Shown piece after piece: positions 1,079 through 64,000 of a stretch of DNA of 64,000 nt (position 1 is its first letter; each line of letters starts with the position of its first letter). Made by a program: the position numbers and the translations under genes. The stretch is from Psammoneis japonica (Eukaryota): positions 1-64,000 of the forward strand of contig QPGO01000112.1 of NCBI GenBank assembly GCA_008632985.1. Direction: 5' to 3'. The notes beneath the pieces are model-generated. The model saw only the letters and a list, made by a program, of their open reading frames with translations. It was not told the DNA's origin and did not search any database.

Positions 1079-1079
1079 C

Positions 1080-31245: not shown

Positions 31246-31249
31246 CCGT

Positions 31250-36135: not shown

Positions 36136-36178
36136 ATCTCTTGCACATCTAACAGTTTTTCACAAGTTTTGAAAGACC

Positions 36179-39644: not shown

Positions 39645-39756
39645 GTGTTTCTCCTTTGACAAACAAAACCTCACAACTTCTCTAAGCTCGCAGAACAGAA
39701 AGTATGACAAATGATTCTCTAGCTAGAGGTAGGTAACGTAATGCATAGGCCCTACT

Positions 39757-42211: not shown

Positions 42212-42359
42212 GCCACCGCGTCAACTCCATGGCTCATTGTGTGTGAAGTTGAGCGGAACGAATTTTGATTTTTGATTTTATTTCGACGTCACGCTGACGT
42301 GGTTTGTAAGTCTGTCATGCGTGCGCGATAGATCGATCGTGAGCAGAGAAGCTTTCGCA

Positions 42360-45270
42360 AGACCCTACCAACCTCGACAAACTCCGACCCATCGGATGCG
42401 GCACCGCCATCCGACGCGTGGCTGGCGCCCTCACTATGACCATCAATGCGCCCGCACTCACGGAGTACCTCCTCCCCGATGGCCAATTCGGCACAGGCAT
42501 CAAAGGCGGCCTCGACTGCCTCATCCACGCCACTCACGCCAATGTCGAACGCCACCTCAACACCACCACACCAACCCACGCCTTCCTCACTCTCGACCTC
42601 TTCAACTTTTTCAATGAATGCTCACACGACACCTGTCCAGAGCTCCTCAACAACATGCCCGCCTTCAAACACCTTGTCCCCATCTTCGACCTGCACTGCA
42701 ACATGCCAAACACGTGCTGGTGCCGCGATCCAGCCGGCCTCTGGTGATCATTTCCCCAACCCAAAGGATTCTCGCAAGGGTGCCCACTCACCCCTCCATT
42801 CTCTGCCCCAGTCCTCAGCGTCATCCTCAAACAACTCAGTGCTGAACTCCGCCAACGCCTCCCATCCTCCAACATCACGTCAACTGCCTCCCTCATCGAC
42901 GACACCAGCATCTGGCTCCCGCACGCTGAACTGCCGTGGTTCCTACAACACCTCAAGGAATTGGGCCCTCAACATGGTGTCTGCCTCAATTGCTCCAAGA
43001 TGCACACACTCACCTCGACAACCAGCACCAGCCCCCTGCCAAACTTGCCCCCAGCAAGTGCCGACGCCCTCCGCCAAGCCCTGCATTTCCTTGACCCTGC
43101 TGACGATCCTGCCCTGCATCCCGAAATCACTGCTGCCCTCTGCTTCCTTGGCCAACCCATTGGCAGCCCCACCTTTGCCCACACCTGCCTTGAACAAAAA
43201 GCCGACACCTTCTGCACCAACCTCGACAGACTCTCATCACGCCTCCATGACACCCAAACCAAAAGCTCCCTCTGCCGCACCTGTGCCATCCCATCACTCC
43301 TGCACCTGCCAGTGTCCGACGTCCACTTCAACTTCAACCCAGACAACCCACAACCTCTCACTTCCTGGACTTCACCTTTCCAACAAGAGGTCCAACACTG
43401 CTGCAACACCCACCTGCAACATCTCACAGCGCAGCCACTGCCACTGCCACCGCACGCCACGCTCCTCGCCCACCTCCCAGCATCCTCCGGCAGTGGCGGC
43501 TGCCGATCCACATCCGCCTCCGCCATCCCCTTTCTCGTCTCTCAACTCACTCACTCCTTTCGACATGCAACACATGGACCGGCTGCAGGCCAGGACAACC
43601 CCCTCAAGCTCCCACCTTTCTACGCTCGCTCCCTCCGCACCTGGGCCACCTCCCGCCGCCCCTTGCACCTGTGTCAGGTCTTTCAACACTGTGGCAAAGC
43701 TGCCACACACACTCTCAACCCTCCCCCACCTTCCCTGAAAGCCTTCGTCAAAACGCACCCGCTGCGCAACCTTTCCCACACCCTCTGTCATGCACACTTC
43801 GAACATGCATGCTCACAGACCTCCGCCTGCATGGACCATCGCACGTCACCCACGCGCTCCCGTCCCTTCTCTCTCCACTCACAAGTCTCACCCTCCACTC
43901 CCAATGGGAATCATTTGGGTCCTGAGAGTCATCACATGGAAATTGTGCAGGAGAGTGCTAAAAACAATTGCTGTCAGTCTGTCCATCCATCCGTGTGCGA
44001 ATGTCAACTTCTCGGGAAATCAGTTGAAATGCTGTCTGATTGACGGCATTTTGATTCACACAGTGAAGGCCAATGCCGTCAATCAGACAGCATTTCAATT
44101 CAGTTCCCGAAAAGTCATTGGCTCTGATCACTCTCTCACATGACATTGTGCACATTTCCACACGATTTTGTGACCCATGCGACATTTTCGAATGATTCCC
44201 ATTGTTGCTCGCATGCCACCTCAACAACGCCTAAACCCTGAACAGTTCCGCCTGATGCTGCAACGCAAATTGCGGCTCCCCATCTCACCGAATCAACTCG
44301 CACCACCTGCCTCTTGCCCCTCTTGCTCCGGCACCATCGACCCATGCGGTGACCATGCCTTTTGTTGTCGATCCCTCGGACACAAAACAACCATGTCGAA
44401 CGCCATCCGCGATGGCCTCTGCGCTGCTTTCCAAACACTTGCTCCACTCTCCGGCATCTGTGCCGACTCTTCTGCCACACACCACGAACCAACCAATCTA
44501 ACACCTCATTCACCCCTCAAATGCCCTGCTGACGCAGGCATCCAGCCCACCCCAGCCGCCTCTGCTGCCTCCCCTCTTGGCCACTGACACCTTGCCATTG
44601 ACGTCACTGTCCCTGAACCTCCCCCATTGCTTGCTCCTGGCTTGCCTGCCCCCACTCTTGACCCTCATGCCGAGGCACACCACACGAGCACAAAACGGAA
44701 GTTCAACGGAACCCACGAGACCCAACACGAAGCAACCCTTACATCCGCCCTTAACAATGCCGGCATCCACCTCATTCCCTTTGCCATCGACCACCTGGGA
44801 GCTCCAGGCTACTTCACCCACTGCCTTCTTTTTGGCGCCAACCAAGACCTCCCCATCCCTGCTCCACCCGCCCCACCTTGGAACACTGAAACCTGTTTTC
44901 AACACCCAGCTGCCCACGCCGCATGTGCCTGCGCCCAACAATCCCCATCTGCCATCCTCCCTGCTGCCACCGCCACCTGGCAAACCATCTCCGCCGAACG
45001 CTTTGGCCTGACCCACCACTCCTCAACACCGTCACAATGGGTCTGCAGAGCCCAAGCCTCGTGATCACCAAATCGCTCGCTGACCAACCAACCCACTGCT
45101 CCACCAAACTACAATCGCAAACATCAAACCCCAACTCGAAATCCATCCCTTTTCCTGCCTGCATGACTCCGTTCCGCCATTGCCCCGCGTCTGTCCCTTC
45201 CCCCGCGCCACTGGGTGACGTTGCACGTGAACTTCGCGCGCGCACTGCTGGGCAGTTTCCCTGGTCTAAC
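42360..45270 (+). mobile_element. 5'-truncated RLE-type non-LTR retrotransposon (RT + zinc knuckle + RLE), TA-depleted, interrupted by a MITE
   Basis: KLRPIGCG, GQFG, LTLDLFNFFN, QGCP, SLIDD, CPSC...GDHAFCC; 3' kb closely similar to 1-1060. Confidence 0.85.
43902..44204. mobile_element. MITE-like element with 14-bp TIRs and internal 27-bp hairpin
   Basis: TIR caatgggaatcatt / aatgattcccattg; perfect arms 44024-44050 and 44072-44098; related to 16931-17264. Confidence 0.82.
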
Positions 45271-45961
45271 CAATGGAATCGATCCTTGCTCGCTCCACTC
45301 TCCACTCTAGCTAGAGCTCTGCTGGTGCTCTCTCTAGAGCTAGAGAGGGACAGCATCAATGCTGGCATCGCACCTGACAGAGAGCAGGCAACCGCTCTCA
45401 CACAGGTCTTTCGATTGTGGCAAAAAATCAATGTTGGTTCCTCCTCTTTTAGGTGGAACTCTCTAGATCGAAGTCTGAAACCGAAAGATTTTGGATTGCC
45501 GCCCTCACTGCTGTCAGAAAACAGAGCCATGACGATTGCCTGCACCAATCATTTTGATGCATTTTGCGCCGGGCATTCGAATTGATTGCAACACATGACG
45601 GTTGTTTCAGTGCGCACTTTTGCGCGACCCACGCGACATTGACTGACATGCATCAGTGCGTGGTGCTGGTTGTTTTGCTTCTGACCGTTCTGTCTTCTGT
45701 GAGGTTTCATGAGGCTGTCTGTGCACATTGATGTTGTCCAGTTGTGCATGTTGATGTTGTCTGAGGCAAGCTGCGTTGCATCAAGTGAATGTGGAAATGT
45801 GCAAAATTTACGCATTGTTGCAGTTTCTTTGCCAAATGGTTGGCCCTCATTCATTGCCATGCTCAATCCGCGGCGGCTTGAGTGAAAGTCCATGTGCATG
45901 TGTTTTGCGCATTGATGCGGTTGTCTTTGCTGAATGGCCATTTGCAATTTGCTCAATTCCA

Positions 45962-46480
45962 TCATTTCTGGCCACACTTCTTCTGAAGGGACTTTGCTTG
46001 CTCCTTCTCCTGCTCCGCCATCTCCTCCTTGGTGAAAAATCTCCCCGACCGCTGTGGAATCACCGCTGCATGTGCTGCCTTTAGCTCCTCCATGGTTGAA
46101 TCATCCTTGGGCGCAACCGTTGTTTCCACATGATGACTGTCCGCTGTCGTGTTGTCTTGCACAAGCACAGAAGTGACATCAAAATTTCCCGAGGCAAGGT
46201 CAAACGCCGCTCTTGCTTCTTCCAAGGTAATCTCCTCTTCGTCTTCCTTGTTCATCAATGACTGAAGAAGTTCCGCACGTGTCTGCACCTTTTTCTTGTC
46301 CTCACCAGTTTTCTTTGGCTCGTCTGCCTTCTTTGTTTGTTGCTGCAAATCCATGTTTTCTCTGTTGCTACGTTTTCTGTGACGGTTGCGTTCGCGTTTC
46401 TTGGTTTGTTGGTTAAAATCCATTCGACGTTGTGTGATGCATGTGCAGATTTCTGCGCAATGTGCTGACCCAATCGACAC
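45962..46480 (-). CDS. Hypothetical charged protein downstream of the Rep-helicase (TA-depleted)
   Basis: 172-aa ORF, Lys/Glu-rich, co-oriented with helicase; no family recognised. Confidence 0.35.
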   Translation of the reverse strand: MSIGSAHCAEICTCITQRRMDFNQQTKKRERNRHRKRSNRENMDLQQQTKKADEPKKTGEDKKKVQTRAELLQSLMNKEDEEEITLEEARAAFDLASGNFDVTSVLVQDNTTADSHHVETTVAPKDDSTMEELKAAHAAVIPQRSGRFFTKEEMAEQEKEQAKSLQKKCGQK

Positions 46481-46569
46481 ATTTTATTTTACGAAATTTC
46501 CGCATTTTTACGGTTGGGGTCGCCAAACAGTTGCACAGTGGTTGAGCATCCTAATCTGATGTTTGGGTG

Positions 46570-49500
46570 CTACATTGGTGTTTCTGCGCACTGTTGCTGA
46601 GAAAAATGCGTGGCGCTTCTCTCCTTCATGAGTCTCATCAAGGCTTTGTAGCCTTCTGGGACCTTGTGTTTTCGCAGGTCCTTGCTCAGTGGCTTTCGCA
46701 TGAACAGCCCTTCTCTGGTCTTTACTCTGGAGAGCACAACGTGCACCCAATTCTGAGTGTAGCTCCAAGAGTGTGCAAACAACTGCGGGACTCCACTCCC
46801 TTGCAGTTTGTGCCCTGCAGTGGCATTGTTGATGACAAACGGCAGCTGGGTTGCCTTCAGTTGGAAAGTGTGCCTTTGTTTGTCGCCTTCTTCTAAAACT
46901 AGGCTGGGCTTGGCGATGCAAGCCCTGAAAGTGTTTGTTTTTGGCTCAACTAAAAACTTCGCGGGGTCGATGCTTTTGTTGCAGTGTTCCAACACAACGT
47001 GGTCTACCTGACTGGCAAGTGCAGCAGGAATGCCAATGTTGTTGTCTAAAGTTGCTGGTCTTGGTTCCTGTCCTGGTTTGAGAACGACCTTGTCAACAGT
47101 GGCTTGCGCTCCGTTTGCTTGACCGTTTGCTGCATTTTTGTTGAAAGGTGTCATGACTCTGCATCTTCTGTAAATTCACAAGACTGGATCCATTCTTCCT
47201 GATTGCATGACAACGTCTCCTTCACCACAGTTGTTCCAGAAGCTGTTGCAAACCGGAAATGGTTGGCAGAGTCTCGTGCCATTCTGTGCCTGCAAGTCGT
47301 CACTGAAAATCAACATTGAGTCAAGGACGTGTCCATCTCTTCTGTGCAGTGTTTCTGCTCTTTTTTCGAACAGGCCAGTGTCAATTGCATCTCTGTCCTT
47401 ATTTGCACACGCAGCACAGCGGAGGTCACTGGGCAGATCATCTTCGTTCTGAACTGCTCGTTCGTTGATGCACTCTATGTCGTCAACTGTGATCTTGCCA
47501 GTGCGGAATCTCTCAAGCAGTTTTCCCCATGATGGATCGTCTTCAAACCTGTGTGCACCACGAAGTTCTGTGTGGCAGTTGATCCACTCGTGAAACTCGG
47601 GACATGCATCTTTGTGTGGTGGTTTCACTCCTTTTCTGACTGGTTCTAGTTGCCTGAGGTCACCTGCGAAAACAATGTTGACACCACCGTGCGGCTTGCT
47701 CAATTCGCTCTTCAATGCTGTCAAATTCTCATGGAGTTTTTCTAGTTCTCTCTTGCTTGCAAAAAAAATCTCGTCTGCCACCAAAAGTCTCGTGTCTGAC
47801 CATGCTTCAATTTGCTCTTCGGTCATTTGCTTTCTTCTCATGAGGCATGCAACTCGGTGGATTGTGTCCCCTTTGAGATCAGTCGCAGCCACTCCGGTCA
47901 GTGCAGTTGTTCTGATTGTGCTTGTTGTGAACGGCTGCTCAACAAGCGAGCAATGCTCTCTTCCGCATTCCACGACGAGGTCCATTGTGGTTGATTTGCC
48001 ACTTCCACCTGCACCATGTAAAAAACACACAAGTTGCAACGTTCTACGTCTTTGCACTTCCACGAGTTTCTTCAATCGGCGAAGGTTTGTTGCGAACTCG
48101 TGTCTGCCATTTCTCCTGTTGAGTCCATTGCGTGACGTCTCGTCTTGAAGAGCGTCTTGGCAGTGAGTGAGCACAAAGGTTCCTGCTAGAATTTCAAAGG
48201 CACGCTGCTGTTGCCCATCCAGTCTTGCTTTCCTGGCCCAGTCTACAACACTTGCTGCAGATCCGTTTGCTTGACGCACATCGACGTGTTCTTCCAAACC
48301 TGTCACATCCTCAAACGACCTTCTTGTTCTTTGCTTTCTAGTCAGCATCACTCGAACAATGTCATCTCTTGACAGTGGTCTGCTGTGGATGTGTTGTTGC
48401 ACTCCTTCATTCTGGTCTTCCTCGTCGGTGTCATCGCCGCCCTCTAGATTCTCAAAAAGTTGTCGTTCATTAACCTGGCTTTCCTCGTTTGGTGGGTCAG
48501 TGTGCATGTCTGCCAAGCATTTGCAACCACCCATGTGTGGGCCTTTCTGTCTTGCACGTTCACCGCTCAAATGCGCAGGAACAACTGCTTGGTCGCTCAA
48601 CCCAATGTCATCGTCTTCTGGCTGCTCTGCCATTTCTTCCAAGAGTGCATCCAGCAGTTGACCCTGAACGGCACCTGAGAGACCTTCTTCCTCGTCACTT
48701 TTGCGACAGTCAAACGCAACGTCAGCAGGTCTAAATTGCTCCGTCTTTCTTTGCAGATCGTCAGATGCACTTTTGAGACGAAGGCAGTTGGACCCAGCAT
48801 CCTGTGGGTTCTGCAAGAAGTTCAAGTTTTCCTTTGCAACAACACCGGCTGCTGCGGAGAGTTGGAATTCACGCAGGCATGCATGGGTTGTTGGTTTGAG
48901 TTCCGTCATTGTTCTGCAAGGCGCAAACAAGGCCAATGCCAACTTGCAGCACAATTCTTTGTCTGGTGTTGTTGGTTGCTGCGGATCTACAAGGCAACTG
49001 CCAAACTTGGCTGCATCAGGAAAATCACACTGAAGTGCTTTTGACAATCGCGGTTGCTGTCGCTGTCTGACACCTTGAAGAAACTTGTTCTTCGTTGAAT
49101 TGTGAGACGGGTGCCTGTGCGCTCTGTTGTCGAACATCATCATGCCGTGTTCGTTTTTCCTTGTGTTGCGAAGAACTTCGCACTCACTAAAAAACGCAAA
49201 CAGACTGAGATTCTCCAGTGCTGTTGGACGACATGGGCAGTGCAAGGCCTGGCATTGGAAGAACGGTGTGTCGCCAAAACAGGCTGCAGTTGCAGACACT
49301 TCGTCTCTTTCTAGTGTGCTGACAATGTCTTTCAAGGGGCACCATGCGGTCAAATGAGATTCGATGAAACGGCTTCCGTTCCTTGTCATGTAAGACGCAA
49401 GTGGTGGTCCAATGACGTTCGTCTTGTCATGCGAGCAAGCACCCCACATGAGACATCTGATTGCTTCCAATGCATCAGATGCATGTTTCCGTAATTCCGT

Positions 49501-52221
49501 CGCTGTCCTGTTCGTAGTTCGAAGCACTTCATCGTACGATGCAGCATCATCTTTCTGGGCATCTTTTAGGATGCACTTGATCGTGCATTGAGCAGATGGT
49601 CCAGGCATCAATGAAGCAATGTTTGTGTTGCATGTCAGTTTTGATCTGCTCATTGCAGGGCACGACACGTTTTGAAAAGCATCGCACTTTCTCCTCTTCG
49701 GAACAACTTCCTTCATGCACCGATGCGCAAAAGTTCCATCCCAGCTGAACCACTTTATCTGAGTGTCATCTGCATTCCTTGCTGAATCATTTGGACATGA
49801 AGCAGCTGGTTGCCTGTGACGGCAGTCACCTGGTTTGAGCTCCTCTCGTTTCCTTTTCCTTGACTGCGTGTCCAGTTCCTCGTGTGGGTTTTTTTTACGC
49901 ATTTTACGCAACTCTGCGCATTTGGGAAAACACGACTTCATAACGTGCATGTGATGGTTGTAAGCTGCGTCCGGCATGTGTGCCTCTGTTGTCCCTTGCG
50001 GACCACTTCGCTGGCATTGTACACACATTGCTTTTAGTCGCTTTGCGTGGTCATCTGGATGGCGAGTCAGGCCAGGTGCACGGTGCCGTGACTGTAAAAA
50101 GCTTTCTACAAACTCGACGTTTGTCCAGCACTTGGTGCAGTGACGACAACAAGCAAACATTCCGCTCTTCGACTGCTGGCCGTCTTCATGCCTCAGGTTT
50201 CTTAGCTGTTGGTTGTCTGCTGCTTTTGGAGAGGTGTGACACATTTTTGGTGCTGCACAGTCATGATCGAATGCTTCACGCAACGTGTTGGTGCTGAAGT
50301 CCTCGCTGCAGATTAATTCCATGCTGCAGATCTTCTGAACTGTGTTGGCAAGGCACTCAGCACCTTCGCGACGGATCTGTCTTGTTGGGGAATGCAGTTT
50401 CTCTCTTGCATTGTTGATCGATGCAAACCAGATCTGCATGTGTCCGTGTGCTGTCAGACGTCCCTGCTCCTCAACTGCGGCTAAAAATGCGGCTGGCCTG
50501 CCAATGTAGAAGTTAAAGTTTTCTCTTGGTTGGTTGGCACTCAGATCCCAACCCACTGCCTCTTCTGTTGCAATGTCAAACAAGCACTCAAATGCAAAGG
50601 CTGTTAGACCAGGAAACTTTAGATGCAGTTCATTGCGTTGCTTGGCCCTGCCAGCAAGAATTTCGTCCGTCAGTTGTGTCACGTCTTTGTTTGGGTCTAG
50701 GATGAAACCCGAGCACAGTTGCACAAGAAACGAATTTGCATCGTCCGCACTGACGGTTAAGAAAATGCCACCCTGACCAAAATGATGCTGACAAGTTTTG
50801 GCGTTTCTCCTCATTTTCTTTGCTGCTTCGTTGCTGTGTGGCAGAGACGCAGATGCAACGTCGAGTGCACACAAAAAGTGGTGCCCGAGTCCACAATCTC
50901 TTCTCTTGCCCAAGTTGCTGTCACAAACAGCTCCATCCACATCGTCCACTGTTGGTTCGTTTGCAAACTGTGCAGCCTGATTCTTGTCCCTGACTTTCCA
51001 CCCTGCACTCTGTGGCATCCTTTGCTTCATTGTCAAGTTGTGGCACATTAACACGAAGAGCTGCTCGTGGAAGTGAGGCTGGGAAATCCGTGCCAAGTGG
51101 TCGGCACAGTGTGCAAGGTTGGTGCTGTCTGTGAGACTTCTGTCTTTCTTCATTCTCGTCTCATTGATTCCTCCTCTGCCAAAAGGAAACTGCAGCAGAC
51201 ACGCGCCAACGAAGTTGTTGAATTTGAAATCACTCACAGATTCTTTGGACAACTGTGCTTGCACCTCTAAATCAAATCCGTTGGCAGCAGCTTCGTGTGC
51301 AAGATCTTTGAAGCAGCCCAGGTTGCACTGACCACCAGTTGCAGGAGACATGGTTCCATCAGGAAAGCAAACATGAAATGACTCTGAGGTCTCAACATTC
51401 GCATTTTCTCCTTCTTCTTCGCTGGTGCTGTCGACAAGTGCGGGATTCCGCAGATTGCGCCCAACTTCGTCTAGATTTGTCTGTTGGTGCACCCACTCTT
51501 GGTCATGGTGCAACAGCCATTCCATCGCCCTTGGCATGTGGTGCGCCCCAATTCTGTTCTTTGAATGTGCAAGTTGTCTTTGCTCCGGAGTCATCTTTCC
51601 AGTCATCAGTGCAATCACATTCTGATGTAAATTCAGTGCGTCGAAGTGCACAACAGTTCTTACGATGCTTTGCATCTTGACTTTGTAGCACGTCAGACTT
51701 CCCTGGAGCTTCTTCTGTTTGCCGCCAAGGCAACTGAAGCAGCACCCGCATGTTTTCACTGGTGTGAGCATTGCCAATTCTGCTTCGGTTGGAGACAACA
51801 GTTCGTGCGGCGGGGTGCCGAAACAGCAGTTGTTCGCTGTCGCGTGCATTGGCACAATGGCTCTTCCCAGGCTTCTTCGGCATTCGCTGCAGCAAGTGAA
51901 TCCGTCGACGCGTCGTCTGTCTTCCTGCACCACGCATTGGGCGCGGGGAGAAAGTGGCAGGTCTTTGATCCAATCAGCATCTTCATGCTCTACAGTGCAG
52001 CAGGACTTGAGACGATCAGATGCGCTGCTCCAGTCTGAAGGGGTGAGTGAGTTTCTTGCTGATTCCAGTGTTTTGAGCGGCAAGTGGCAAACTTCTCTAG
52101 GTTTCAGCAGAACGTCACAGACTGAACATGCGTGTGGTCTAAATTCTTCATCTCTGTGTGGACAAAGCATCTCAAACTTTCCATTGATTGCACTGCAAAC
52201 ACGGGAGTTGGCCTTGTCCAT
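46570..52221 (-). mobile_element. Helitron-type Rep (HUH endonuclease)-PIF1 helicase gene, mutated
   Basis: 1681-aa ORF: IFLTVS (motif 1), EEQGRLTAHGHMQIW (HUH), QCTIKCILK (Y..KY motif with Y->C), GAGGSGKS, VADE, FAGDLRQLEPV; ORF 46570-47154 adds HKLQG and WVHVVLSRV. Confidence 0.85.
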
Positions 52222-52349
52222 TTCAATTTAAGCTGACACTTCAACTCAACAAATTTCAAGAAGTTGCTCAGTGAAAACAGTTGTTTTTTCAGTGCGATCA
52301 CCGTGAAGCTGCGATCGGCGCCATCCAATCACCACAGTGATGTGTGTTT

Positions 52350-54662: not shown

Positions 54663-54881
54663 GTTGTTTTTTTTTTGCCGGCGCAGTGTAAATTTGCAAA
54701 TGTTCAGCAAACTGAGTGTCGATTGCAACTCAGCTTTCCTCTGTCTCTTCAAGTGTGTGCCATCTCCGACGACAACTTGTCGTTGCCGCGAAGCAATGGT
54801 GAATTGAGTGGAGCAACTAGCGTGTGACGTCTGGCACAGTGATGGCAAAAAAACAGCTCAGTTGAGTTCTTAAGTAAAATT

Positions 54882-57800
54882 TGCAGCATGCCTCGCCACT
54901 GGACAACACGGCGAGACCGTGCACAAGCCTCTTGTGCGTGGCAACGCAGCATTGTTAACACGCACCTGGGAAGCACGACCACAGGAGGGCGTGGCTCTGG
55001 GTCTCAGGCAATTCCAGAAGGATGCCAAGAGAGCATCCGTGTGAAGCACACTGGCCCGTCGTCTGGCCCATGATGGCAGCGTGATTCCACACGATGACAT
55101 CACTCGTGCATGGCGCGTGATGGCTTGATTCGCACGATCCACAATGCGAACGCACGATCGATTTAATGCGATCCAAATGCAAACGAATGGGGATTTGGCA
55201 AGATTCCCCATTCGCACGATCCCATTTTCTCTACTCCAAACCAGCTCACAATTTTCACAACGACAAAGTCGCAGCACATCTTCTTTTTCAGCGCCCAGTG
55301 CATGCATGGGGCACAGCAACATCACTCCCGCACATTGTGCCAGGTGACGAAATCTGCAGAAACGAAACTACGAAATGTTGGTGGGACCGACAAATCTCAA
55401 AACGACCATGAAGAAGCGGATTGAGCCGCCGATTCCGTTCGCACGGCCGGAGAAGAAAGAGCTGCAGCAGGGCAAGTGCCAGACGTTCAAGCTGCGTAAC
55501 AACCCCGCTGATCCGGACAGTCCAATGCACGAGATGGGCATCCCGTGCCTTTCTGCGGCCACATGCGAGACACTCCCAATCTTTCTGCGCAACGTGGATC
55601 GCGTGCACGAAGGACAAAACATCGCGACCGGGCCAGCGAAATTTGCCCTTGTGCGTGACTTGCTGCAGGGCGATGCTCTGACGTCATTTGACAATGCCGC
55701 TGACAAGCAGGCATCCCAAACCAACGCCACGTGCGCAGCATGCGTCGCGAAGCTAAAGGAAAGCATCTTCCCAAATGGGGCGGTGCTGCTGCAGAAGCGT
55801 TGTCTGCGGCGCTTCATGCGCAAGCCCGCAGAGGTTTCTACTCGTGACTACGTCGCGAGGGCTGTTGAAATTAACGGCTATATCTCTCAGTTTCCACCCG
55901 TGACGGAGGATGGAGAAACACCGGCACCATTACCTAATGACGAACTATGCGATGTGTTCGAGTACGGTGTGCCGAACGCGTGGCAGAAGTTCATGACGCT
56001 ACAGAATTTTGACCCGTTGGCGCATACTATCGCCGAATTTGTACAGTTCTGCGAGCGCATCGAGCAGGTCGAGCTTACCGAAGGTAACCAGGACCAACAT
56101 ACTAAGGTTCTACGTAAGTAGGGACGTAGAATGGACAATCTTGAGTCGTTGATCACGACCCAGCGGAACACCCAGAAGTCGTGTATGCTACACGGGACTA
56201 ACTGTGGACATGATACGGAAGATTGCCGTCAGCTCAAGCACCACGTGAAACGTGTCAAGACTGGACATTCCAATAACGGAGGCGGCAAGCCTAATACAAA
56301 ACCTCGGAATGAGGAAGATATTAATACTCTCATCGGATCGAAGGTCGAGGAGTACTTTGCCAACGCTCAGAAAAAGCGTAAGGCCCGCGAGGAGGAGCTT
56401 AATCACTTCCGCGACCTCAACTTAAGTGATTCCGAAGATTCGGACGCCTGAGAAGGGGGCCGACACGATACAGGTAGTTTTAATACATTAGATGAATGTA
56501 TAAATGAACAACTGAATTACCATCGTACACGTGTTGTAGGCCAATCCCGTAAACGAGTTAAAAAGACTCATCTTACTCCAATCTTGTTTGTAGCTATGAA
56601 TACTAAACATGGCAAGGGCAAGACTCAAACTATTAAGGCACTACTAGATAGTGGCGCTAGCAGTACTCTACTCGATAGTCGATACTGTAAACGTCTGCGA
56701 AGCCATTCAACGGCTGAGACAAACTGGACTATGTACATACGGTAGCAGGCTCGTTTAGTACGTCTAACGACTGTACCGTTAAATTTCGGTTACCAGAATT
56801 ATCCGAAACTGCAGAACTTAAGCATACCGTCCACGTACACAACGGAAAGTTGGGCAAGTACGATATGATTATTGGACGTGACATTCTGGAGACACAAGGC
56901 ATTGATATTGTCTTCTCTAAACAGATGATAGAGTGGCCATTAGTCAATGGAGAAGTACCAATGAGGCACGTAGATGCTACGGTGGAAACCTCCTTCTATC
57001 TTCAAGATCCAGAAGCCTTATCTTCGGAAACCGACCGGATTTCGCGTATTTTAGACGCTAAGTACGCGCCGGCCTGCCTCGAGGACATAACGCGAGGGAC
57101 AATAGGACTTTCTATAGTTCAACAAAACGACCTTTTGGCACTATTGAAACGCCATGAGTCCTTATTTGATGGGACATTAGGAGAATGGAAGGGAGAACCC
57201 TACCATATCCAACTCAAGGAGGGTGTAGAACCATACCACGCTCGTCCGTATAAAGTACCTCGTGCGTACGAAGCTACGCTACGTAAGGAAGTAGAGCGCC
57301 TAGTACGTATCGGTGTTCTCAAACGCGTTAACCGATCCCAATGGGCAGCTCCATCATTTATCATACCGAAGAAAGATTTAACGGTACGCTTTATTAATGA
57401 TTTGAGAGAGCTGAATAAACGGATTAAGCGATTGCCTTATCCGATTCCTCATATCCAAGATATGCTACTTAAGCTCGAAGGCTTTATGTGGGCTACATCG
57501 CTGGATTTAAACATGGGCTATTATCATATCCGATTGGATACTGATAGCAAGAAGCTCTGCACGCTCAACTTCCCGTGGGGCAAGTATGAGATGCAGGTAT
57601 TGCCCATGGGATTATGTAATTCGCCAGACATTTTCCAAGAACGCATGTCAGGCTTATTTGAAGATCTATCGTTCGTTCGAACGTACTTAGATGACCTTCT
57701 CGTCGTGACGAAAGGCACCTATGAAGATCACCTCAACAAACTTGAAGAAGTTTTATTGAGGGTCCAGAAAGCAGGACTAAAAGTCAACGCAACTAAATCT

Positions 57801-60190
57801 CACTTCTGTCAAACCCAATGTTAGAACACTTGGGTTATCTGGTTGACAGAGACGGAATACGACCAATGCCTGATAAAGTCGACGCCATTAAGCGAATCGC
57901 GACGCCAACCAACAAACGCGACCTACGTTCATTCATTGGCATGGTGAACTGCTGCCGCGACACGTGGATTAGACGTTCTGAAGTCTTGGCTCCGCTGACA
58001 CGACTCGCAAGCGCGACTGTCAAGTGGGAGTGGACGTCCGTTGAAGACGAGGCGTTCGAAACCGTTAAACAGGTGACATCGGATGATGTTTTGTTGTCAC
58101 ATCCTGATTTTAACAAACCCTTTGAGACACATGCCGATGCCTCTAAATGTCAATTGGGAGCAGTTGCATCCCAAGATGACAAACCTGTCGCCTTTTGCAG
58201 CAGGAAGCTTGACAGTGCACAACCAAATCATGCAACAACGGAGAGAGAATTGCTCGCCATTGTGGAGACGTTGAAAAAATTTCGAACGATTCTCCTTGGT
58301 CATCGTGTGATCATGTGTGCTGATCACAAAAATCTTACATGCAAAGCATTCAACACCGAGCGCGTCATGCGCTGGCGGTCAACATGCGAAGAATGCGGTC
58401 CCGAATTACGCCATGTCAAGGGTGCCCATGGCCCAGTCGCTGACGCTCTTGGTCGCCTTCGACCAGCACCCAGCTTGCCTTCCGAGGCCAATCCGGATGT
58501 AAAAGACACTCCATCGAGTCGTCCTTTGCATGAAGCCTTTAACACAGACGCTCAAGATGAGCCATCTCTGCCCATCAGCTTCAAGCGCATTCAAAAAGCA
58601 CAACAAAAGGACAAGTGCCTGCTCTCAAGAGCTGAGGACTCATCTGACTGCTCCATTCGCGCGCATCGTGGGGGAGGGTCATCACGACAGCCAATCTGTC
58701 ATAAGGACAAAATCGCAGCACCACAGTCATTGCAGGTTCCGCCAACTGAATGGTGCCACGAGACACTGTGTCATCCAGGTGAGACACGCACGGAAATGTC
58801 CATTGCCCAGCACTTCTGTTGGCCCAGCATGAGGTCTACGGTGCATTCTACGTGCGTCAAGTGCGATCAATGCCAGAAGACAAAACGCCGAATGCAGCGT
58901 TGTGGGAAGCCACCAGAAAAGGTCGCAGAGACAATTCCATGGGAAACTCCATGCATGGACATGATGGGGCCACATAAAGTTCAAAGACGCGGAAAGGACA
59001 CCTTGCAATTGTGGGCAGTCACAATGATTGACCCAGCAACCGGGTGGTTCGAGATTGAAGAAGTGTCTACGAAACGCGCAGACGTCGCAGCAAACGTCGT
59101 GGAACAAACGTGGCCATGCAGATGTCCGTGGCCAACCCAGGTGGTTTATGACCGTGGGACAGAATTTGTGGCAGAATTTAGCCAGATGATTAAAAATGAC
59201 TGTGGGATTTTGAAGAAACCCACAAGCAAACGGAATCCACAGGCAAATGCCATGGTGGAACGTGTGCACCAGACACTTGGTAACATGGCACGTTCCTTTT
59301 CAGCACAGGATGTGGAACTGGACGAAGATGACCCATGGAGTGGCATCCTCTCCGCAGCAGCCTTCGCTGTTAGAGCTGCGGCACACACGACCACGCGTGC
59401 AAGTCCCATGCAATTGGTCTTCGGACGCGATGCGGTTTTGTCTGTTGCCCATCGTGCTAAGTGGAAGTGCATAGAAACCAGAAAGCAGAAGCTTGTCCAC
59501 TTAAACAACAAGTGTGAAAATCAGAAATGCAAGGAGCATCAACACACCGCAGGGCAGTTGGCACTTGTCAAACAGGAACAATCCTCTAAATGCAGTTCTG
59601 ACAGCTGTGCAGGACCCGCCAGAGTTGTCCGTGCATGTGACAACGGCACGTTGCGTGTCCAGAACGGAGCGCTGACAGATGCGTGTGATCTACGGCAGAT
59701 TGTGCCCCATCACCAGCAAGACATTCTGTCACTTAACGGCCCTGATCATGGGGGAGTGTGCAGCATGCCTCGCTGCTGGACAACACGGTGAGACCGTGCA
59801 CAAGCCTCTTGCACGTGGCAACGTGGCATTGTCAACACGCACCTGGGAAGCACGACCACAGGAGGGTGTGGCTCTGGGTCTTGGGCAATTCCAGAAGGAT
59901 GCCAAGAGAGCATCCGTGTGAAGCACACCAGCCCGTTGTCTGGCCCACGATGGTGGCGTGATTCCACACGATGACATCACTCGTGCATGGCGCGTGATGG
60001 CTTGATTCGCACGATCCACAATGCGAACGCACGATCGATTTAGTGCGATCCAAATGCGAACGAACAGGGATTTGGCAAGATTCCCCATTCGCACGATCCC
60101 ATTTTCTCTACTCTAAACTAGCTCACAATTTTCACAACGACAAAGTCGCAACACATCTTCTTTTTCAGCGCCTGGTGCATGCATGGGGCA
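54882..60190 (+). mobile_element. Full-length Ty3/Gypsy LTR retrotransposon
   Basis: 432-bp TG...CA LTRs at 54882-55313 and 59759-60190, 4-bp TSD AATT, PPT ggggag; gag 55408-56451, protease LLDSGAS, RT YLDDLL, RNase H DAS, integrase HPG/DRGTEF/NPQANAMVER in Gypsy order. Confidence 0.95.
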
Positions 60191-60194
60191 AATT

Positions 60195-61048
60195 GGCTGT
60201 TTCACGACGGGCAAATGCTTCCGTTCCAAGTGTGTCGGAGTGGGACGTCGCATGTGCTGGCTGGTTGACTGAGAAGTCTCCTCTTTCTTGGTGCACTTGT
60301 GGAAGATGAGATGTTTCACGTCTCCGCTGTGCCACAAAAAGTCGCCATCATGGCAATCCGCTGTGAAGGACTCGCACATCCACTCTCCCGCATGCGACGC
60401 GAACAGCGGATCTAGCGCCACCACCACGGTCCCAGCACGACACAACTTCGAAAGCATCGCCTCTGCCTTCTGCTGTGTGTTCTTGTCGTCGACCATGCGG
60501 GAGTTGCAGTTGTTGAAGAACACCTTGAGTCCTTTCTTTTTCCACAAAGGAGCCAGCCTCTCGTCCAAGAATGACTTGTTGATCAACTCTAACCCGCCGT
60601 TCGAGCAAAGGCCAGCACGATGAGCCCAACGTACAGCCTCTTGGTGATGATCGTGGTCGGCCTCGATGCTCACCACGGTGCAACGGCGACGAAGTAACTT
60701 GAGCCCGATGCTGGGTCCGGCAACCCCCCCGCCCATGTCGACAGATGTGTTGCAGGTGTGATTCACACCAAGAAGGCGTTCGTTCAAAAACACTTCGCTG
60801 CTCAAAGCGAAGCCAACTTCGCCGCCGTGCAAAGATCTGCTTCCGTCTCCGGAGACACGCCTGCTCTGGAACGCGGAGTCCGGAGCCGTTTGAAGACAAA
60901 ACTCCCTGACACTTCTGCAATTGTGGATCATCGTATCCAACCTTGTGGCAACATCAACCTTGCTTGCAGCGGGTTCGACCAGACGTCGCGTTTCCAAACC
61001 AAACTGTGACGTGTGCAGAATGTGTAAAATTGCCGTCGCGCCCTCCAT
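60195..61048 (-). pseudogene. DOT1-like class I SAM-dependent methyltransferase (mutated; 3' end abuts the Gypsy insertion)
   Basis: LHGGE (cf. YGE), VDMGGGVAG (motif I), VSIE, LINKSFL, KVFFNNC (cf. DOT1 VIFVNN). Confidence 0.6.
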
Positions 61049-61342
61049 GCATGCGAAATTTTCAAACGCGGCATGCTGCCTCTACCTGTGTGTGGAGTGA
61101 CATACAAAGTCATTTTAAACAGATGTGTGGACGCATTGAAATGACAAGACGCCTTCAGGCGATAAAATTTGTTTTGAATCTCGGCCTGCTTCTCATCGTC
61201 ACCGCACTTGTACATCCGTGTAATTCAAATGCACGAGCTGGCATGGCACGCGACGCACTTCTACGCGAGAACTCGCACTGAGATTGCCGTGGGATGATCC
61301 TCCCTCCGCGGAGACAAAAACAACGCGACAACACTTCCGTCA

Positions 61343-62812
61343 TTGTGTTTTGAAACACATTTCAAATTGAGACACACCATGTTGCAACTGCCTCGTGCCT
61401 CGCTGCGTTGTCCTGCCAACGACAAGCACTTGTCGCGATCGAGTTACAGCCGGTCTCGACAGTGTGGGGGTTTGGGACGTGCAGCTCGCAGCCCAACAAC
61501 AAGCAAGTGCTTCTCGCGATTGGGTTTCGACCCCACTCCCCTGGAGTCTGCCGGTCCCTGTCAACAGAGTTTTGCTTTGGGTGCTCTTGAGGCAACGGAA
61601 AGCAGACACATCTCTCGATCAGGTTTTGACCCCACTCCCCTGGAGTCCGCTGGTCCCTGTCGACAGAGTTCTGCTTTGGGCACTGTTGAGACGACAGCGA
61701 CAGTGTCAAGCAGTGGAACATTTGCCGGCAAGTTCGCACACACGTTCTCTGCGAACACCGCATCGTCAATGCGCACCAGGACATGCGAGAACGTGTTGAG
61801 GGCTCAACCGCCACTTCGCAAGGCCCACCGCAGCTGCAGGCGAATCCGCAGCCACGCCAGTGGGAAAACATCCAAGATTGCTCGCCTCGTTCCACTCGCA
61901 CCGTGCGCCACTAAGAGTCTCTCCATGCACTGCGTAGCTGACCGCACTCTAGTTTGTGACGGCGACTACACTCAGCCTGCACCACCTTGTCTTGCTGACA
62001 TTGACTTTGCCGAATTGGCTCCTCTGGTCGTCTGTGACCCTGTGCTCGATCTGAAGCCTTTCTTTGGCTTGGACGGTTGCCGCTGCGACAACACCTGCAC
62101 CCTGCTGCCGCGTTCTGCTGTGGTGTTCAGCTCCCCCAACCCAGCAGAACTAGTTGCTCAGTGCTGAGCGCTCGAAGCACTAGATTGCTGCACCGCCCAG
62201 TCCACCGTGCACGGCAAACAACGCGTTACCTTCATGGAGACGGACAGGAGCAAGCATTCCACGATTGGCCTGGCTGCCATGAGAGACGCTCGAATTTCTT
62301 GCAAGCAGCCTGGCATGGCCGACCAACACACTCACCACCTCACCAGACTTCTTTCACGCATGGAGCACCTTGTCAATGAGTGCGTGGACCATGCCATCCT
62401 CAAGGGTGTCGCTCGTGTCAAAAAGTTTCACAACTGGAAATCCCTGGCACGGTCAGATGGCATTTTCTCCTCTCTGGCGGCTGGGCGCAATGTCTTCCTC
62501 AATGCCCATCGGGACCAGGACTTCTTCCTGTCAGTGGTCACCATGGTGGGAGTCCCTCCGTCCGGCAGCCACACCATGAATGATGGGATTGTGGCGTGCT
62601 TCTGCTTCCCTGCCGAAGGCATCTCCGTTGCACTCCGGCTTGGTGATGTCATCATTTTTAACCCCACCAAGTGCCACCGCATCTCCAGCAGGACAAACTC
62701 AAACGACGAGTTCTTCTGCGTGTCTCTCTACCTGAAGAGTGCTGCAGTGGGCAAGAGTGACAATTCAATCCCCCTTTCTCTAGAGGAAGAGACCATTCTC
62801 AGGCGACTGTGA
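61343..62812 (+). pseudogene. 2OG-Fe(II) dioxygenase, TET/JBP-like C-terminal domain; one in-frame TGA at 62165-62167
   Basis: LNAHRDQDF (HxD), FCFPAEGISVALRLGDVIIFNP..H, CVSLYLK; ORFs 61343-62167 and 62207-62812 share a frame; ~99-bp internal duplication at ~61510-61695. Confidence 0.55.
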
Positions 62813-63034
62813 CAGTGCAAAATAACTTGCTAAATTTGCGTAAATTTGCTGACTTTCTGTGCTCAGGCGACTGTGCAGGCACCTGCCAATTTGCTGGATT
62901 TGCGCAAATTTGCCGACTTTCTGTTCTTCCTCGTTCCCATTTTTCGAACCACAACTGGGGCTACGCCTTTCCAACCAATGCTGCAGTTTCGCTGAAAAAC
63001 ACCAACACACTGTGCTGCTAATTTACAGAGCACA

Positions 63035-64000
63035 CTACACGGCAAACGTTTTGCCAGATGCAGAGCTTCTCCCCCCCGACTTGGGGAGTAGACGCGATTT
63101 CTTCTTCCGATTCATGGCACCCGACATCGCCTTCCTCTTCTTCTTCTTCTTCTCCGATTCGTCCAAGTTGCATCTGCAGAGAAATTCCTCCCCGGGCATG
63201 ATTCGCTTCGTGACTGCCAAGCACCCGTCATTGTAGAACTCGCAGTTGTTGTCTGCGTGTTGGCTTGCCTTGATCTTCTTCTTGTCCTTGAACGACTCGG
63301 TGGCATCGTTCACGCAGTGCATTCCGAGGCAGAGTGGATGGGAATTCTTGTTCCCTGGACTGCTAAAATCAAGCAGTTTTGGCTCCACTGTGACGTGGCA
63401 GCCCTCACTGTCATGGATGGTGGAGCAGCACACGCTGTGGTCTTCTCCAAACTTGCTGTCGTGGTCGCACCACGAGCAGCTCCTTGTCGCACCGGGCACC
63501 CTGGGGCCCACGTAGATTCCAACCATGCTGCCTTTCTGGAACTGGCGCAAAGCAAAAAAACCAATGCCTGCACCCCTCCGTTGCGACACGCGCAGCTCAC
63601 CCACCTCCACCTCCTTGGGGCCTGCGGAGCGAATGGACTTTTCGAGGCAAAACAACGCAGGTTGAAGTGACACGGCGCCTCATCCAAATGTGCACACTTC
63701 TGCACTTGCTCTCTTCATGAGGTGGACCAGTGTGAGCAACCACCCCGCTTCGAAAGCCTCAACGGCGGTCTTGAACACTTTGTTGCTCTTCGGCGTCGAG
63801 TCTGGGATGCCCCTCTTGCCGACTTCCGTGCGGCACCTCCACACCCACTTGCAGTGTTCGCCGTGAGCATTCGCGACGGCTTCAGGGTCGCTCCTGATGC
63901 ACCCCAGTTCTCCCAGCACGGGGAACCAGAGGTCGGGATCACTCGGCGCATCCTTCATCAGGCACATGGACTCCTGGAAATTATCGGATTTTTCGTGCCG
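63035..64000 (-). pseudogene. SET-domain lysine methyltransferase (mutated; may start outside the window)
   Basis: GAGIGFFALRQFQKG...IYVG, GMHCVND, NNCEF, VTKRIMPGEEFLCRC (terminal Tyr->Cys); upstream ORF 63680-63967 in the same frame. Confidence 0.75.

Follow-up and report, generated by a model that had tools for sequence, protein, structure and literature searches.

Loss of TpA from the repeat blocks of a 64-kb algal contig window points to post-insertion TpA to TpG/CpA hypermutation

Why is TpA almost missing from the repeats of a contig whose genes contain it at ordinary frequency? The question is raised by the window, that is, the whole stretch of 64,000 nucleotides analysed here, in which the first-pass annotation had described TpA as very rare in repeats and normal in host genes. 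Sliding analysis of the TpA and CpG observed/expected ratios (O/E) across the window agreed with this description, TpA depletion tracking the repeat blocks. Per 1 kb, TpA O/E was 0.02-0.27 in 1-1000, 5001-25000, 42001-56000 and 58001-64000. In 1001-5000 and 25001-42000 the range was 0.45-1.14, and the two kilobases of 56001-58000 gave 1.08 and 0.93. When 650 bp of boundary zones were excluded from both pools, the depleted repeat blocks (40,150 bp) contained 241 TA, whereas base composition predicts 2,401 (O/E 0.10), and the normal blocks, consisting of the genes and one Gypsy core (23,200 bp), contained 1,043 as compared to 1,562 expected (O/E 0.67; Fisher p ~1e-240 for the two pools). Judged by TA positions, the edges of the depletion lie at ~1,570-1,640, 5,400, 24,600-24,900, 42,470, 55,750-55,840 and 57,900. 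Depletion halts about 100-300 bp from the repeat/unique junctions and the genes at 25.0-42.4 kb are normal. At one junction, dense TA ends at 42466 and the next TA is found at 42944; at another, the recovery of TA and that of CG fall within 24,600-24,900. The features of the window are as follows, with the strand where one was assigned.

1..1570: TpA-depleted repeat; TA O/E 0.16 in 1-1000, 9 TA in 1-1500
1640..5380: stretch of normal TpA with a RING-like ORF at 3676-5025 (minus strand; weak match to Pfam zf-RING_11); TA O/E 0.49-0.80
5400..11500: TpA-depleted unclassified repeat, CpG partly kept; TA 0.0048 and CG 0.0425 of dinucleotides
11501..24850: block poor in TpA and CpG; TA 0.0029, CG 0.0062, TG 0.1162 and CA 0.1143 of dinucleotides
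25000..42466: host gene block (Pfam), normal TpA; TA O/E 0.45-1.14
42467..54881: TpA-depleted repeat block, beginning ~250 bp from the end of the DUF1275 ORF
47179..52227, minus strand: Helitron Rep/helicase ORF, open over 1,683 aa; Pfam Helitron_like_N, PIF1, DUF6570
54882..55313, plus strand: Gypsy 5′ LTR; TG...CA ends, AATT target duplication outside, 3 TA left
55750..57890, plus strand: unmutated Gypsy core (end of gag, protease, RT); TA O/E 0.88-1.27 per 200 bp
57900..59758, plus strand: mutated Gypsy RNaseH-integrase; Pfam RT_RNaseH_2, Integrase_H2C2, rve
59759..60190, plus strand: Gypsy 3′ LTR, 94% identity to the 5′ LTR
60191..64000: TpA-depleted repeat, target of the Gypsy insertion; TA O/E 0.17-0.25

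Only two elements were identified by Pfam, the Helitron (47179-52227, minus strand) and the Gypsy element (~56450-59790, plus strand). The first-pass annotation had listed LINE, Copia, Gypsy, MITE and Helitron sequences as all affected; Gypsy and Helitron stand, whereas LINE, Copia and MITE were not confirmed. Pfam gave zero matches on 5400..11500, 11501..24850 and 60191..64000, and no LINE, Copia or transposase domain in 168 ORFs of at least 90 aa from the other repeat blocks. Pfam also detected no deaminase among the ORFs of the window. The gene block encodes a Prp17-like WD40 protein, a NUDIX protein, the large subunit of ribonucleotide reductase, a PRPP synthetase and a DUF1275 protein (Pfam). 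Among the 120 matches listed for the ribonucleotide reductase, three are named diatom proteins with 73-77% identity, and it is on these three that the host is taken to be a probable diatom.

YR steps made up a constant 0.224-0.253 of dinucleotides in all blocks, depleted or normal. The share of TA fell from 0.042-0.072 in normal blocks to 0.003-0.011 in depleted ones, and that of TG plus CA rose from 0.114-0.144 to 0.17-0.23; within 11501..24850, 96% of YR steps were TG or CA. The dinucleotide affected is TpA, and the TA lost from the repeat blocks reappears as TG and CA. GC reached 0.52-0.57 in depleted DNA as compared to 0.47 in the clean Gypsy core. CpG decay was rejected as the cause, since it cannot remove TA and since CpG O/E was 0.62-1.24 in the 42-64 kb region, where TA O/E was 0.05-0.27; the earlier statement that CpG is largely kept in this region was correct. 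CpG decay nevertheless operates here as a second process: CpG O/E was 0.06-0.16 in 12-24 kb, and paralogue copies showed 76 CG-versus-TG/CA differences.

The direction of the change was read from conserved residues, using 60 of 79 full-length relatives for Gypsy and 45 of 87 relatives for the Helitron. In the depleted RNaseH-integrase part of Gypsy, conserved Tyr was kept at 0 of 13 positions (8 Cys, 5 His), as compared to 8 of 8 in the undepleted RT part. The differences that fit TA to TG/CA numbered 33 of 52 in the depleted part (287 conserved columns) and 0 of 13 in the undepleted part (171 conserved columns). The 17 conserved Tyr columns of the Helitron read 12 Cys, 2 His, 2 Tyr and 1 Phe, and Tyr makes up 0.3% of its ORF. 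At conserved columns of the Helitron, 25 of 63 differences fit TA to TG/CA (shuffle mean 6.2, maximum 14). The first-pass annotation had argued that conserved motifs carry the changes predicted by TA to TG/CA. In the translation of 57797-59791 compared with the 60 relatives, this held for AFCSRKL (AFYSRKL in the relatives), MVNCCR (MVNYYR) and EECGPELRHVKG (EEYGPELLYIKG); it did not hold for the H of PFETHADAS, which is the consensus residue of the relatives and hence unchanged. The direction is TA to TG/CA, with conserved Tyr turned into Cys or His only within depleted segments.

We then compared copies within the window. Between the two Gypsy LTRs we counted 26 transitions and no transversion. 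Sixteen of these differences sit in 8 adjacent TG-versus-CA pairs, where ~0.1 such doubles would be expected from CpG decay; with 3 further TA/CA sites, former TA sites account for 19 of the 26, and non-YR changes for 2. As 8 former TA sites distinguish the two LTRs, mutation postdates their synthesis: the LTRs of this single element were mutated independently, post-integration. Four of the 20 self-matches of the window were analysed in the paralogue comparison. Region 1-1061, a 93% copy of 44211-45261 (self-blastn), differs from it by 59 transitions and 2 transversions, and the copies of a 691-bp tandem duplication at 8807-10191 by 40 transitions and 2 transversions. Summed over three paralogue pairs, transitions numbered 125 and transversions 4; the corresponding counts for the fourth pair, an older tandem one, were 33 and 20.

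These comparisons bear on RNA-level A-to-I editing of an ADAR-like kind, or editing of reverse-transcription intermediates, fixed on reinsertion. ADAR usually prefers U before the edited A (Discussion of Mettrop et al., bioRxiv 10.64898/2026.01.13.699255), which fits TpA, and a retrotransposon provides the clearest case in the window. Against this, the Helitron is equally affected without an RNA intermediate, the unclassified flanks are depleted as well, and the LTRs both carry TG and CA outcomes while differing from each other. Moreover, both strands were affected, as the mixture of Tyr to Cys and Tyr to His indicates. RNA editing fixed by retrotransposition is contradicted by the Helitron and LTR results, and we regard this explanation as extremely improbable. 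The change occurs at the DNA level, a DNA transposon being hit like a retrotransposon. The LTR pair, the Helitron and the two Tyr outcomes thus uphold the earlier claim of a DNA-level A:T to G:C mutator acting on both strands of repeats.

The few surviving TA were not a random sample. YTAR (TTAA, CTAG, CTAA/TTAG) accounted for 119 of the 241 TA remaining in depleted DNA as compared to 205 of 1,043 in normal DNA, in agreement with the earlier remark that YTAR dominates the survivors. Conversely, RTAY accounted for 8 of 241 as compared to 309 of 1,043. From normal to depleted DNA, the share of TA among YR steps fell from 0.219 to 0.005 in the R_Y context, from 0.179 to 0.028 in mixed contexts and from 0.159 to 0.066 in the Y_R context, the ancestral TA context being approximated from non-repeat DNA. 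RTAY-selective loss of TA was also found in 6 of the 79 Gypsy relatives, all metagenomic and from two record sets, and Tyr to Cys/His changes were present in the metagenome relatives L044 and L069/L070. In L044, which is partly mutated, ~11% of RTAY, ~71% of mixed and ~93% of YTAR sites were left as compared to unmutated control loci. A context bias is thus observed, and the preferred target is the palindromic RTAY, YTAR persisting best.

Such a palindrome raises the question of which base is attacked. Since TpA is self-complementary, A to G after T is the same event as T to C before A, so that sequence alone is compatible with attack on either base. The chemistry could target thymine or a methylated base rather than plain adenine, through a T-modifying hydroxylase of the JBP/TET type producing 5hmU, or through misreading or deamination of a symmetric mark such as 6mA on RTAY; both would yield an identical pattern, equivalent for adenine/thymine to CpG decay. 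In dinoflagellates, 5hmU is reported to be enriched at TpA. Four-base palindromes such as RTAY are typical of enzymes reading double-stranded symmetric sites, the spread between contexts in L044 is steeper than two independent strand effects added, and the TA and CpG losses share one end point near 24.8 kb. On the other hand, the A targeted by tRNA A34 deaminases is preceded by U33, and this habit fits the TA rule without an extra mark. We consider attack on thymine or on a methylated base, rather than on plain adenine, unlikely.

The context rule also bears on a by-product of heterochromatin, without dedicated defence, arising from error-prone or unrepaired late replication (polymerase-eta-like WA errors, or mismatch repair that is locally lost). 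The depleted blocks have undergone CpG decay as well and are hence probably methylated and silent, and the edges track repeat blocks rather than individual elements, as such a by-product would have it. However, the change is restricted to TA: the O/E of AA/TT and AT was 0.58-1.9, and the palindromic RTAY preference suggests sequence recognition. The polymerase eta WA signature is A to G at TA and AA alike. It was rejected, as AA O/E was at least 0.9 in depleted blocks and A/G differences after a purine made up only 9 of the 178 entries of a tally over the four paralogue pairs, in which each TG/CA double was entered twice. In addition, the comparable process in Bigelowiella natans was active in just 11 of 15 lines (10.64898/2026.01.13.699255). 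A by-product origin therefore appears distinctly unlikely.

Two repeats escaped depletion. The 2.1-kb Gypsy core (~55750-57890) is entirely unmutated between mutated flanks, in a high-copy element, and TpA is likewise kept by a pair of 179-nt repeats located in gene-rich DNA. Together, they show that the target is not predicted by copy number alone. The Gypsy pol also carries frameshifts near 56730 and 57815. One lies exactly at a mutated/unmutated edge, where 2 bases are absent from 36% of the run depth.

A further explanation is an artefact of assembly or base calling, in which modified TpA is misread or polishing mixes copies and the true DNA is TA. Contigs of a public run (X1), which may be the assembly's own data, were compared with the window. 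A contig of depth 55 spans 41001-42569 with 1 difference, and summed depth climbs from 55 to 200-5,400 in 42467..54881; across the depleted blocks it reaches 4 to ~450 times the unique depth. Run contigs also connect 54876 to 60190 without Gypsy. The differences between run and window comprised 376 transitions and 15 transversions. An artefact would be consistent with the pol frameshifts, one of them exactly at the edge, and a consensus of independently mutated copies would restore TA and so could explain the clean core. Only a share of 0.73 of sampled window words was present in the run, so that the repeat bases are partly backed, and at some listed positions the letter of the window was absent from all run contigs. 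Nevertheless, the differences were balanced between directions (A>G 83, G>A 101, C>T 94, T>C 98), with no one-way return to TA, and TA-poor repeat variants occur in the run contigs, whose copies carry the same transition-only variation. Among 40 listed variant rows (33 events) between copies in these contigs, 5 were TG<>CA doubles. Finally, the two other metagenome record sets share both the RTAY-selective loss and the Tyr to Cys/His changes. An artefact is therefore very improbable.

Overall, the repeat blocks have in all likelihood undergone real, post-insertion chromosomal TpA to TpG/CpA hypermutation, fastest at RTAY, by a process of the B. natans type. T:A to C:G transitions have occurred at TpA on either strand after insertion of an element, at a rate highest at RTAY and lowest at YTAR, and are near saturation in the repeat blocks. 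A base-modifying enzyme would be recruited to silenced repeat chromatin, here CpG-decayed too; the most likely agent may be a TadA/ADAT2-like adenine deaminase, whose inosine product would be taken for G in the following round of replication. The terms genome defence and TadA-type deaminase should be taken as interpretations. The clean Gypsy core counts against this explanation, in that a purely repeat-wide or domain-wide process does not predict it. As TAA and TAG are destroyed, no stop codons are created and inactivation proceeds by missense, with Tyr to Cys/His and ATA-Ile to Met/Thr as outcomes. TA-containing signals would be erased as well. It is conceivable, though we hold it only tentatively, that diatoms, chlorarachniophytes and other hosts of such elements share an enzyme-driven defence turning RTAY of silenced repeats into RTGY/RCAY, as an adenine/thymine counterpart of RIP and CpG decay. 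Such a defence may use a symmetric TpA mark later deaminated or misread, and one enzyme active on A and C might drive all YR to TG/CA, as in 11.5-24.8 kb.

To our knowledge, TpA-specific hypermutation has been described in only one study, a 2026 chlorarachniophyte preprint. New here is hypermutation of this type in a new lineage, on transposons, near saturation: a second, ecologically dominant algal lineage bears the signature, much stronger and on ordinary transposons. If true genome-wide, the process would be old or recurrent among SAR algae rather than a one-strain oddity, and would constitute a natural system of repeat-aimed chromosomal A:T to G:C editing. It would be relevant to how transposons are disabled in eukaryotes without RIP and to efforts to find adenine editors of DNA in nature; for the enzyme itself, the RTAY rule offers a concrete handle. 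Since two of three stop codons vanish, long false ORFs arise in such DNA; annotation would call Tyr-less "proteins", and transposon families would appear more diverged than they are.

Several known systems resemble this process in part. The tRNA adenosine deaminases TadA and ADAT2-3, and the adenine base editors derived from TadA, convert an A preceded by U or T to I, which is read as G; we know of no demonstration that this family naturally edits chromosomal repeats. APOBEC3 and ADAR restriction is likewise hypermutation against mobile elements, driven by a deaminase as may be the case here. These enzymes modify a single strand, in cDNA or RNA intermediates, and APOBEC gives C to T, whereas here chromosomal DNA is changed on both strands and a DNA transposon is included. 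CpG decay likewise converts a YR step that is its own complement into TG/CA within silenced repeats. Fungal RIP is similar in being transition-only, dinucleotide-specific and confined to repeats, in ruining transposons in place and in leaving a diagnostic dinucleotide skew. Its direction is opposite, however: RIP converts CpA to TpA, with a gain in AT and new stop codons, whereas the change here runs from TpA to CpA/TpG, with a gain in GC and the removal of TAA/TAG. RIP itself (C:G to T:A at CpA) was rejected as the cause, TpA being depleted and TG/CA enriched.

The closest system is that of B. natans, in which TpA-only T/A to C/G hypermutation of integrated viral DNA was described (Mettrop et al., bioRxiv 10.64898/2026.01.13.699255). 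The first-pass annotation had named no described equivalent; this preprint provides one. In two viral regions, 230 of 231 mutations were A>G or T>C, every one of the 230 on TpA; they arose de novo in mutation-accumulation lines (11 of 15), at ~1000 times the background rate, and TpA-depleted CDS were enriched for RT and DDE domains (10.64898/2026.01.13.699255). ADAT2 of amphioxus and of trypanosomes is cited in the preprint as editing DNA. Its two rho cut-offs, which are values for the B. natans genome applied here to the 64-kb window, were both passed by 28 of 64 1-kb windows, and the TpA one by 41 of 64, with runs that include 10001-24001 and 47001-52001. As in B. natans, the changes are T/A to C/G transitions only, at TpA only, giving TpG or CpA, and they are restricted to foreign or silent DNA amid an ordinary genome, with a long-term signature of low rho(TpA) and high rho(CpA+TpG). 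Unlike in this chlorarachniophyte, the host is a probable diatom, from another supergroup lineage, and the targets are Gypsy, Helitron and unclassified repeats rather than giant-virus and virophage inserts. The depletion is also far deeper, TA O/E of 0.02-0.25 contrasting with a TpA rho of 0.45 in the B. natans NCLDV region (10.64898/2026.01.13.699255). A term search of the main text of the preprint found no analysis of flanking context (10.64898/2026.01.13.699255). B. natans is known from de novo events; the window, read from sequence alone, shows an RTAY>YTAR context rule.

A dinucleotide scan was performed over the window in 1-kb steps. The observed/expected ratio (O/E) of TpA was 0.02-0.27 at positions 1-1000, 5001-25000, 42001-56000 and 58001-64000. 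It was 0.45-1.14 at 1001-5000 and 25001-42000, and about 1.0 at 56001-58000. Both TG and CA climbed to 1.3-2.3 times expectation wherever TpA was depleted. Once 650 bp of boundary zones were set apart, the pooled depleted blocks (40,150 bp) contained 241 TA as compared to 2,401 predicted from base composition, and the pooled normal blocks (23,200 bp) contained 1,043 as compared to 1,562. These counts bear out the first-pass annotation, which had described TpA as rare in repeat blocks and normal in host genes. Judged from the TA positions themselves, block edges lie at ~1,570-1,640, 5,400, 24,600-24,900, 42,470, 55,750-55,840 and 57,900.

In every block, the four pyrimidine-purine (YR) steps summed to 0.224-0.253 of dinucleotides. 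Their split was altered in depleted blocks, where TA fell to 0.003-0.011 and TG+CA rose to 0.17-0.23 of dinucleotides. A constant total with an altered split is the pattern expected of transitions at YR steps, which leave the purine/pyrimidine pattern intact. GC-biased gene conversion was rejected because the loss is specific to TA and CpG shows no gain. CA outnumbered TG by about 2:1 at 1-1000 (117:63) and 43001-45000 (128:64), with C making up to 43% of bases; this asymmetry may reflect a strand bias of mutation in a repeat family, or the original composition.

The genes and elements recognised in the window are as follows.

25-42.3 kb: host genes, namely Prp17-like WD40, NUDIX, ribonucleotide reductase large subunit, PRPP synthetase and DUF1275 (Pfam)
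32482-35092, minus strand: ribonucleotide reductase large subunit, three ORF pieces with short gaps between them
47179-52227, minus strand: Helitron Rep/helicase ORF (Pfam)
54882-60190: Gypsy with 432-bp LTRs, TG...CA ends and an AATT target duplication
about 56450-59790, plus strand: Gypsy pol (Pfam)

The gaps that split the reductase ORF are presumably small introns. Among the 120 matches listed for this protein, three carry an organism name, all of them diatoms (Cylindrotheca and two Thalassiosira, 73-77% identity), so that the window is likely of diatom origin. In the repeat blocks, Pfam returned no transposon domain in the 104 ORFs of at least 90 aa at 1-1635 and 5068-24916. In the 64 ORFs of at least 90 aa at 42.3-47.2, 52.2-56.7 and 59.7-64 kb, its sole transposon match was a weak protease hit that lies within the Gypsy. 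The Helitron and Gypsy named in the first-pass annotation are recovered by Pfam. Its LINE, Copia and MITE labels are unconfirmed, because the other repeat-block ORFs gave no transposon domain. ORF length is no gene indicator in depleted DNA, since TAA and TAG are gone and TGA is the sole remaining stop. Long ORFs that overlap on opposite strands and match no family are found in TA-depleted DNA at 6833-8089 (plus) with 7031-7981 (minus), and at 53553-54662 (plus) with 53673-54857 (minus). In X1, a public sequencing sample whose contigs match the window, contigs join position 54876 directly to 60190, the Gypsy being absent and 5 letters being common to both sides of the junction. The Gypsy is thus missing from other copies of the host repeat and represents a nested insertion into an older repeat.

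The direction of change was examined at protein columns where at least 80% of the relatives agree. Gypsy pol was aligned with 60/79 full-length relatives. In its TA-normal part (up to 57800), 13 of 171 conserved columns differ, none of them derivable by TA>TG or TA>CA, and all 8 conserved Tyr are kept. In its depleted part (beyond 57900), 52 of 287 conserved columns differ and 33 of these 52 are derivable by TA>TG/CA; none of the 13 conserved Tyr is left (8 Cys, 5 His). The Helitron alignment comprised 45 of 87 relatives. The element departs from them at 63 of the 399 conserved columns, and 25 of these differences are TA-derivable; shuffling gave 6.2 on average and at most 14. Of the 17 Tyr conserved in the relatives, 12 read Cys and 2 His, 2 are still Tyr and 1 is Phe. 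Accordingly low overall Tyr contents were observed, 0.3% in each mutated ORF against 3.8% in the clean RT, with medians of 3.9% in Gypsy relatives and 3.5% in Helitron relatives. That intact relatives might naturally have Cys or His was considered, and is not so at these sites. The motifs quoted in the first-pass annotation are all present and fit a TA>TG/CA reading, except that the His of PFETHADAS is the consensus residue of the relatives. The conserved-column comparison of both elements with their relatives indicates that TA is the ancestral state and TG or CA the later one.

An LTR element starts out, at integration, with two identical LTRs. The 5′ and 3′ LTRs of the Gypsy differ at 26 positions, all of them transitions. 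Sixteen of these form 8 adjacent pairs with TG in one LTR and CA in the other. The remainder consists of 3 TA versus CA, 5 CG versus TG or CA, and 2 elsewhere. From CpG, about 0.1 TG/CA pairs would be expected, given that 5 of the 32 CpG sites show a single change. As compared to this value, the 8 pairs observed mark former TA sites struck independently in each LTR. Both outcomes, TG and CA, are present in each LTR, and the TA left there are all in YTAR or CTAC contexts (R, purine; Y, pyrimidine). At least 19 hits fall on about 21 former TA sites of the two LTRs, as compared to 2 on several hundred other positions. We infer from this LTR pair a rate excess at TA sites of at least a hundred-fold, and probably of several hundred-fold when saturation is taken into account.

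Paralogue comparisons covered 4 of 20 self-matches, including two tandem repeats inside depleted blocks.

8807-10191: tandem duplication, 691 bp
52309-52930: short tandem array

Transitions exceeded transversions by 59:2 between positions 1-1061 and 44211-45261, with 9 TG/CA pairs, and by 40:2 between the copies of the 691-bp duplication, with 5 such pairs. Between copies of the short array the ratio was 33:20, which, set against 40:2, makes the array the older of the two. The Helitron passes through no RNA stage and is equally affected, so that neither transcript editing nor editing of reverse-transcription intermediates can be the main cause.

The influence of the flanking bases was evaluated in purine/pyrimidine space, where counts are undisturbed by transitions; these counts replaced a per-strand 4-mer gain analysis, dropped because composition and neighbouring sites confounded it. 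YTAR accounts for 119 of the 241 TA surviving in depleted DNA as compared to 205 of 1,043 in normal DNA, in agreement with the preference reported in the first-pass annotation, and RTAY for 8 of 241 as compared to 309 of 1,043. From normal to depleted DNA, the TA share of YR steps fell from 0.219 to 0.005 in R_Y, from 0.179 to 0.028 in mixed and from 0.159 to 0.066 in Y_R flanks. Taking non-repeat DNA as the baseline, approximate TA survival is about 2%, 16% and 42%, respectively. In the Gypsy and Helitron together, 20 Tyr codons became Cys and 7 became His. Because the A of a Tyr codon precedes a pyrimidine, this imbalance agrees with a preference for pyrimidine after A.

Some parts of the window depart from the simple pattern. 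The Gypsy core at about 55750-57890 (2.1 kb; gag end, protease and RT) is wholly unmutated, with a TA O/E near 1 and saturated flanks on both sides. Intrinsic composition or selection was rejected as a cause of TA rarity, since conserved Tyr are destroyed and a TA-rich core lies within the same element. At the right edge of the core lie a pol frameshift, near 57815, and 2 bases, at 57819, that are absent in 36% of X1 depth. The core may reflect recent replacement from an active copy, local protection, or an assembly mosaic; in the last case, a consensus across independently mutated copies would bring TA back. A second exception is a pair of inverted repeats.

1688-1866 and 31254-31432: 179-nt inverted repeat pair, 75-76% alike, in gene-rich DNA with TpA normal or high

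This pair may be a small mobile element spared by mutation. As it is TA-rich, repetition alone is probably an insufficient trigger. Finally, at 11501-24850 CpG is lost too (O/E 0.06-0.16), TG or CA make up 96% of YR steps, and the two depletions share an end near 24.8 kb; Pfam found no recognisable protein domain there in ORFs of at least 90 aa. This CpG loss, together with 76 CG-versus-TG/CA differences between paralogue copies, indicates that ordinary 5mC decay operates alongside the TpA process.

X1 is the one public sample that contains the stretch; its library type is unrecorded and it is possibly the assembly's own data. Over the unique gene end at 41001-42569, X1 contigs had a depth of 55 and one difference, and over repeats the summed depth ranged from 200 to about 25,000. 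For the Gypsy, X1 depth implies roughly 200-450 copies. Overall, X1 contigs differed from the window by 376 transitions and 15 transversions. The transitions were symmetric (A>G 83, G>A 101, C>T 94, T>C 98), with no one-way return to TA. The 40 variant rows listed, beyond which lie 353 others, include at least 5 TG<>CA double events, at least 11 window CA or TG facing CG in other copies, at least 2 TG>TA and at least 2 TA>TG.

Relatives of the clean Gypsy RT are encoded by 79 metagenome loci; their protein identity is at most 70%, so that they were compared by composition and Tyr columns only. The RTAY:YTAR ratio of TA, with a median of 1.24, was below 0.5 in 6 of the 79 (L044, L026, L069, L012, L046 and L057) and 0.51 in L070. 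The loci with RTAY-selective TpA loss are drawn from two record sets. Conserved Tyr were examined in 12 of the 79 loci. L069/L070 have 6 Cys, 2 His, 3 Tyr and 6 other residues at 17 such positions, L044 has 6 Cys, 6 His, 3 Tyr and 9 others at 24, and L001, L002 and L004 keep all 23-24. L044 is mutated only in part and may represent an early stage of the process. Given the X1 contig variants and the metagenome loci from two record sets, it is unlikely that the pattern arose as an artefact of a single assembly or chemistry.

Overall, the data show that TA is changed to TG or CA in repeat blocks only and depending on context, that the change affects both strands of chromosomal DNA, and that it follows insertion. 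The Tyr columns, the LTR pair and the Helitron thus support the initial proposal of a TpA mutator acting at the DNA level on both strands of repeats. An enzyme would be recruited to silenced repeat chromatin; the simplest candidate would be a TadA/ADAT2-like protein deaminating adenine to inosine. Because TpA is self-complementary, attack on A and attack on T leave the same sequence. The process may also proceed through a symmetric mark, 6mA or 5hmU at TpA, with which the palindromic preference is compatible.

Fungal RIP resembles this process in outcome but has the opposite chemistry, and was rejected as a cause since its direction is opposite. Here, GC rises, and TAA and TAG are removed rather than created, so that mutated ORFs stay open, as does the Helitron ORF (1,683 aa). 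A full-text literature search found no report of TpA hypermutation in diatoms and one relevant paper (bioRxiv 10.64898/2026.01.13.699255); the passages of PMC2806351, PMC4504042 and PMC11884799 that were consulted contained nothing relevant. This 2026 preprint on Bigelowiella natans supersedes the first-pass annotation's statement that no equivalent had been described. According to this preprint, 231 of 302 nuclear single-nucleotide mutations in B. natans mutation-accumulation lines fell in two integrated viral regions, and A>G and T>C changes made up 230 of these 231, every one of them at TpA. The hypermutation reached about 1000 times background and occurred in only 11 of 15 lines, RT and DDE domains were enriched in TpA-depleted CDS, and the authors put forward an ADAT2 homologue as the responsible enzyme (bioRxiv 10.64898/2026.01.13.699255). 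Neither diatoms nor flanking context came up in a term search of its text. In the window, 28 of the 64 1-kb windows satisfy both rho cut-offs given in the preprint. The two cases therefore represent the same kind of TpA hypermutation. As compared to B. natans as described there, the present case concerns another lineage and transposon targets, with a far deeper depletion and an RTAY rule.
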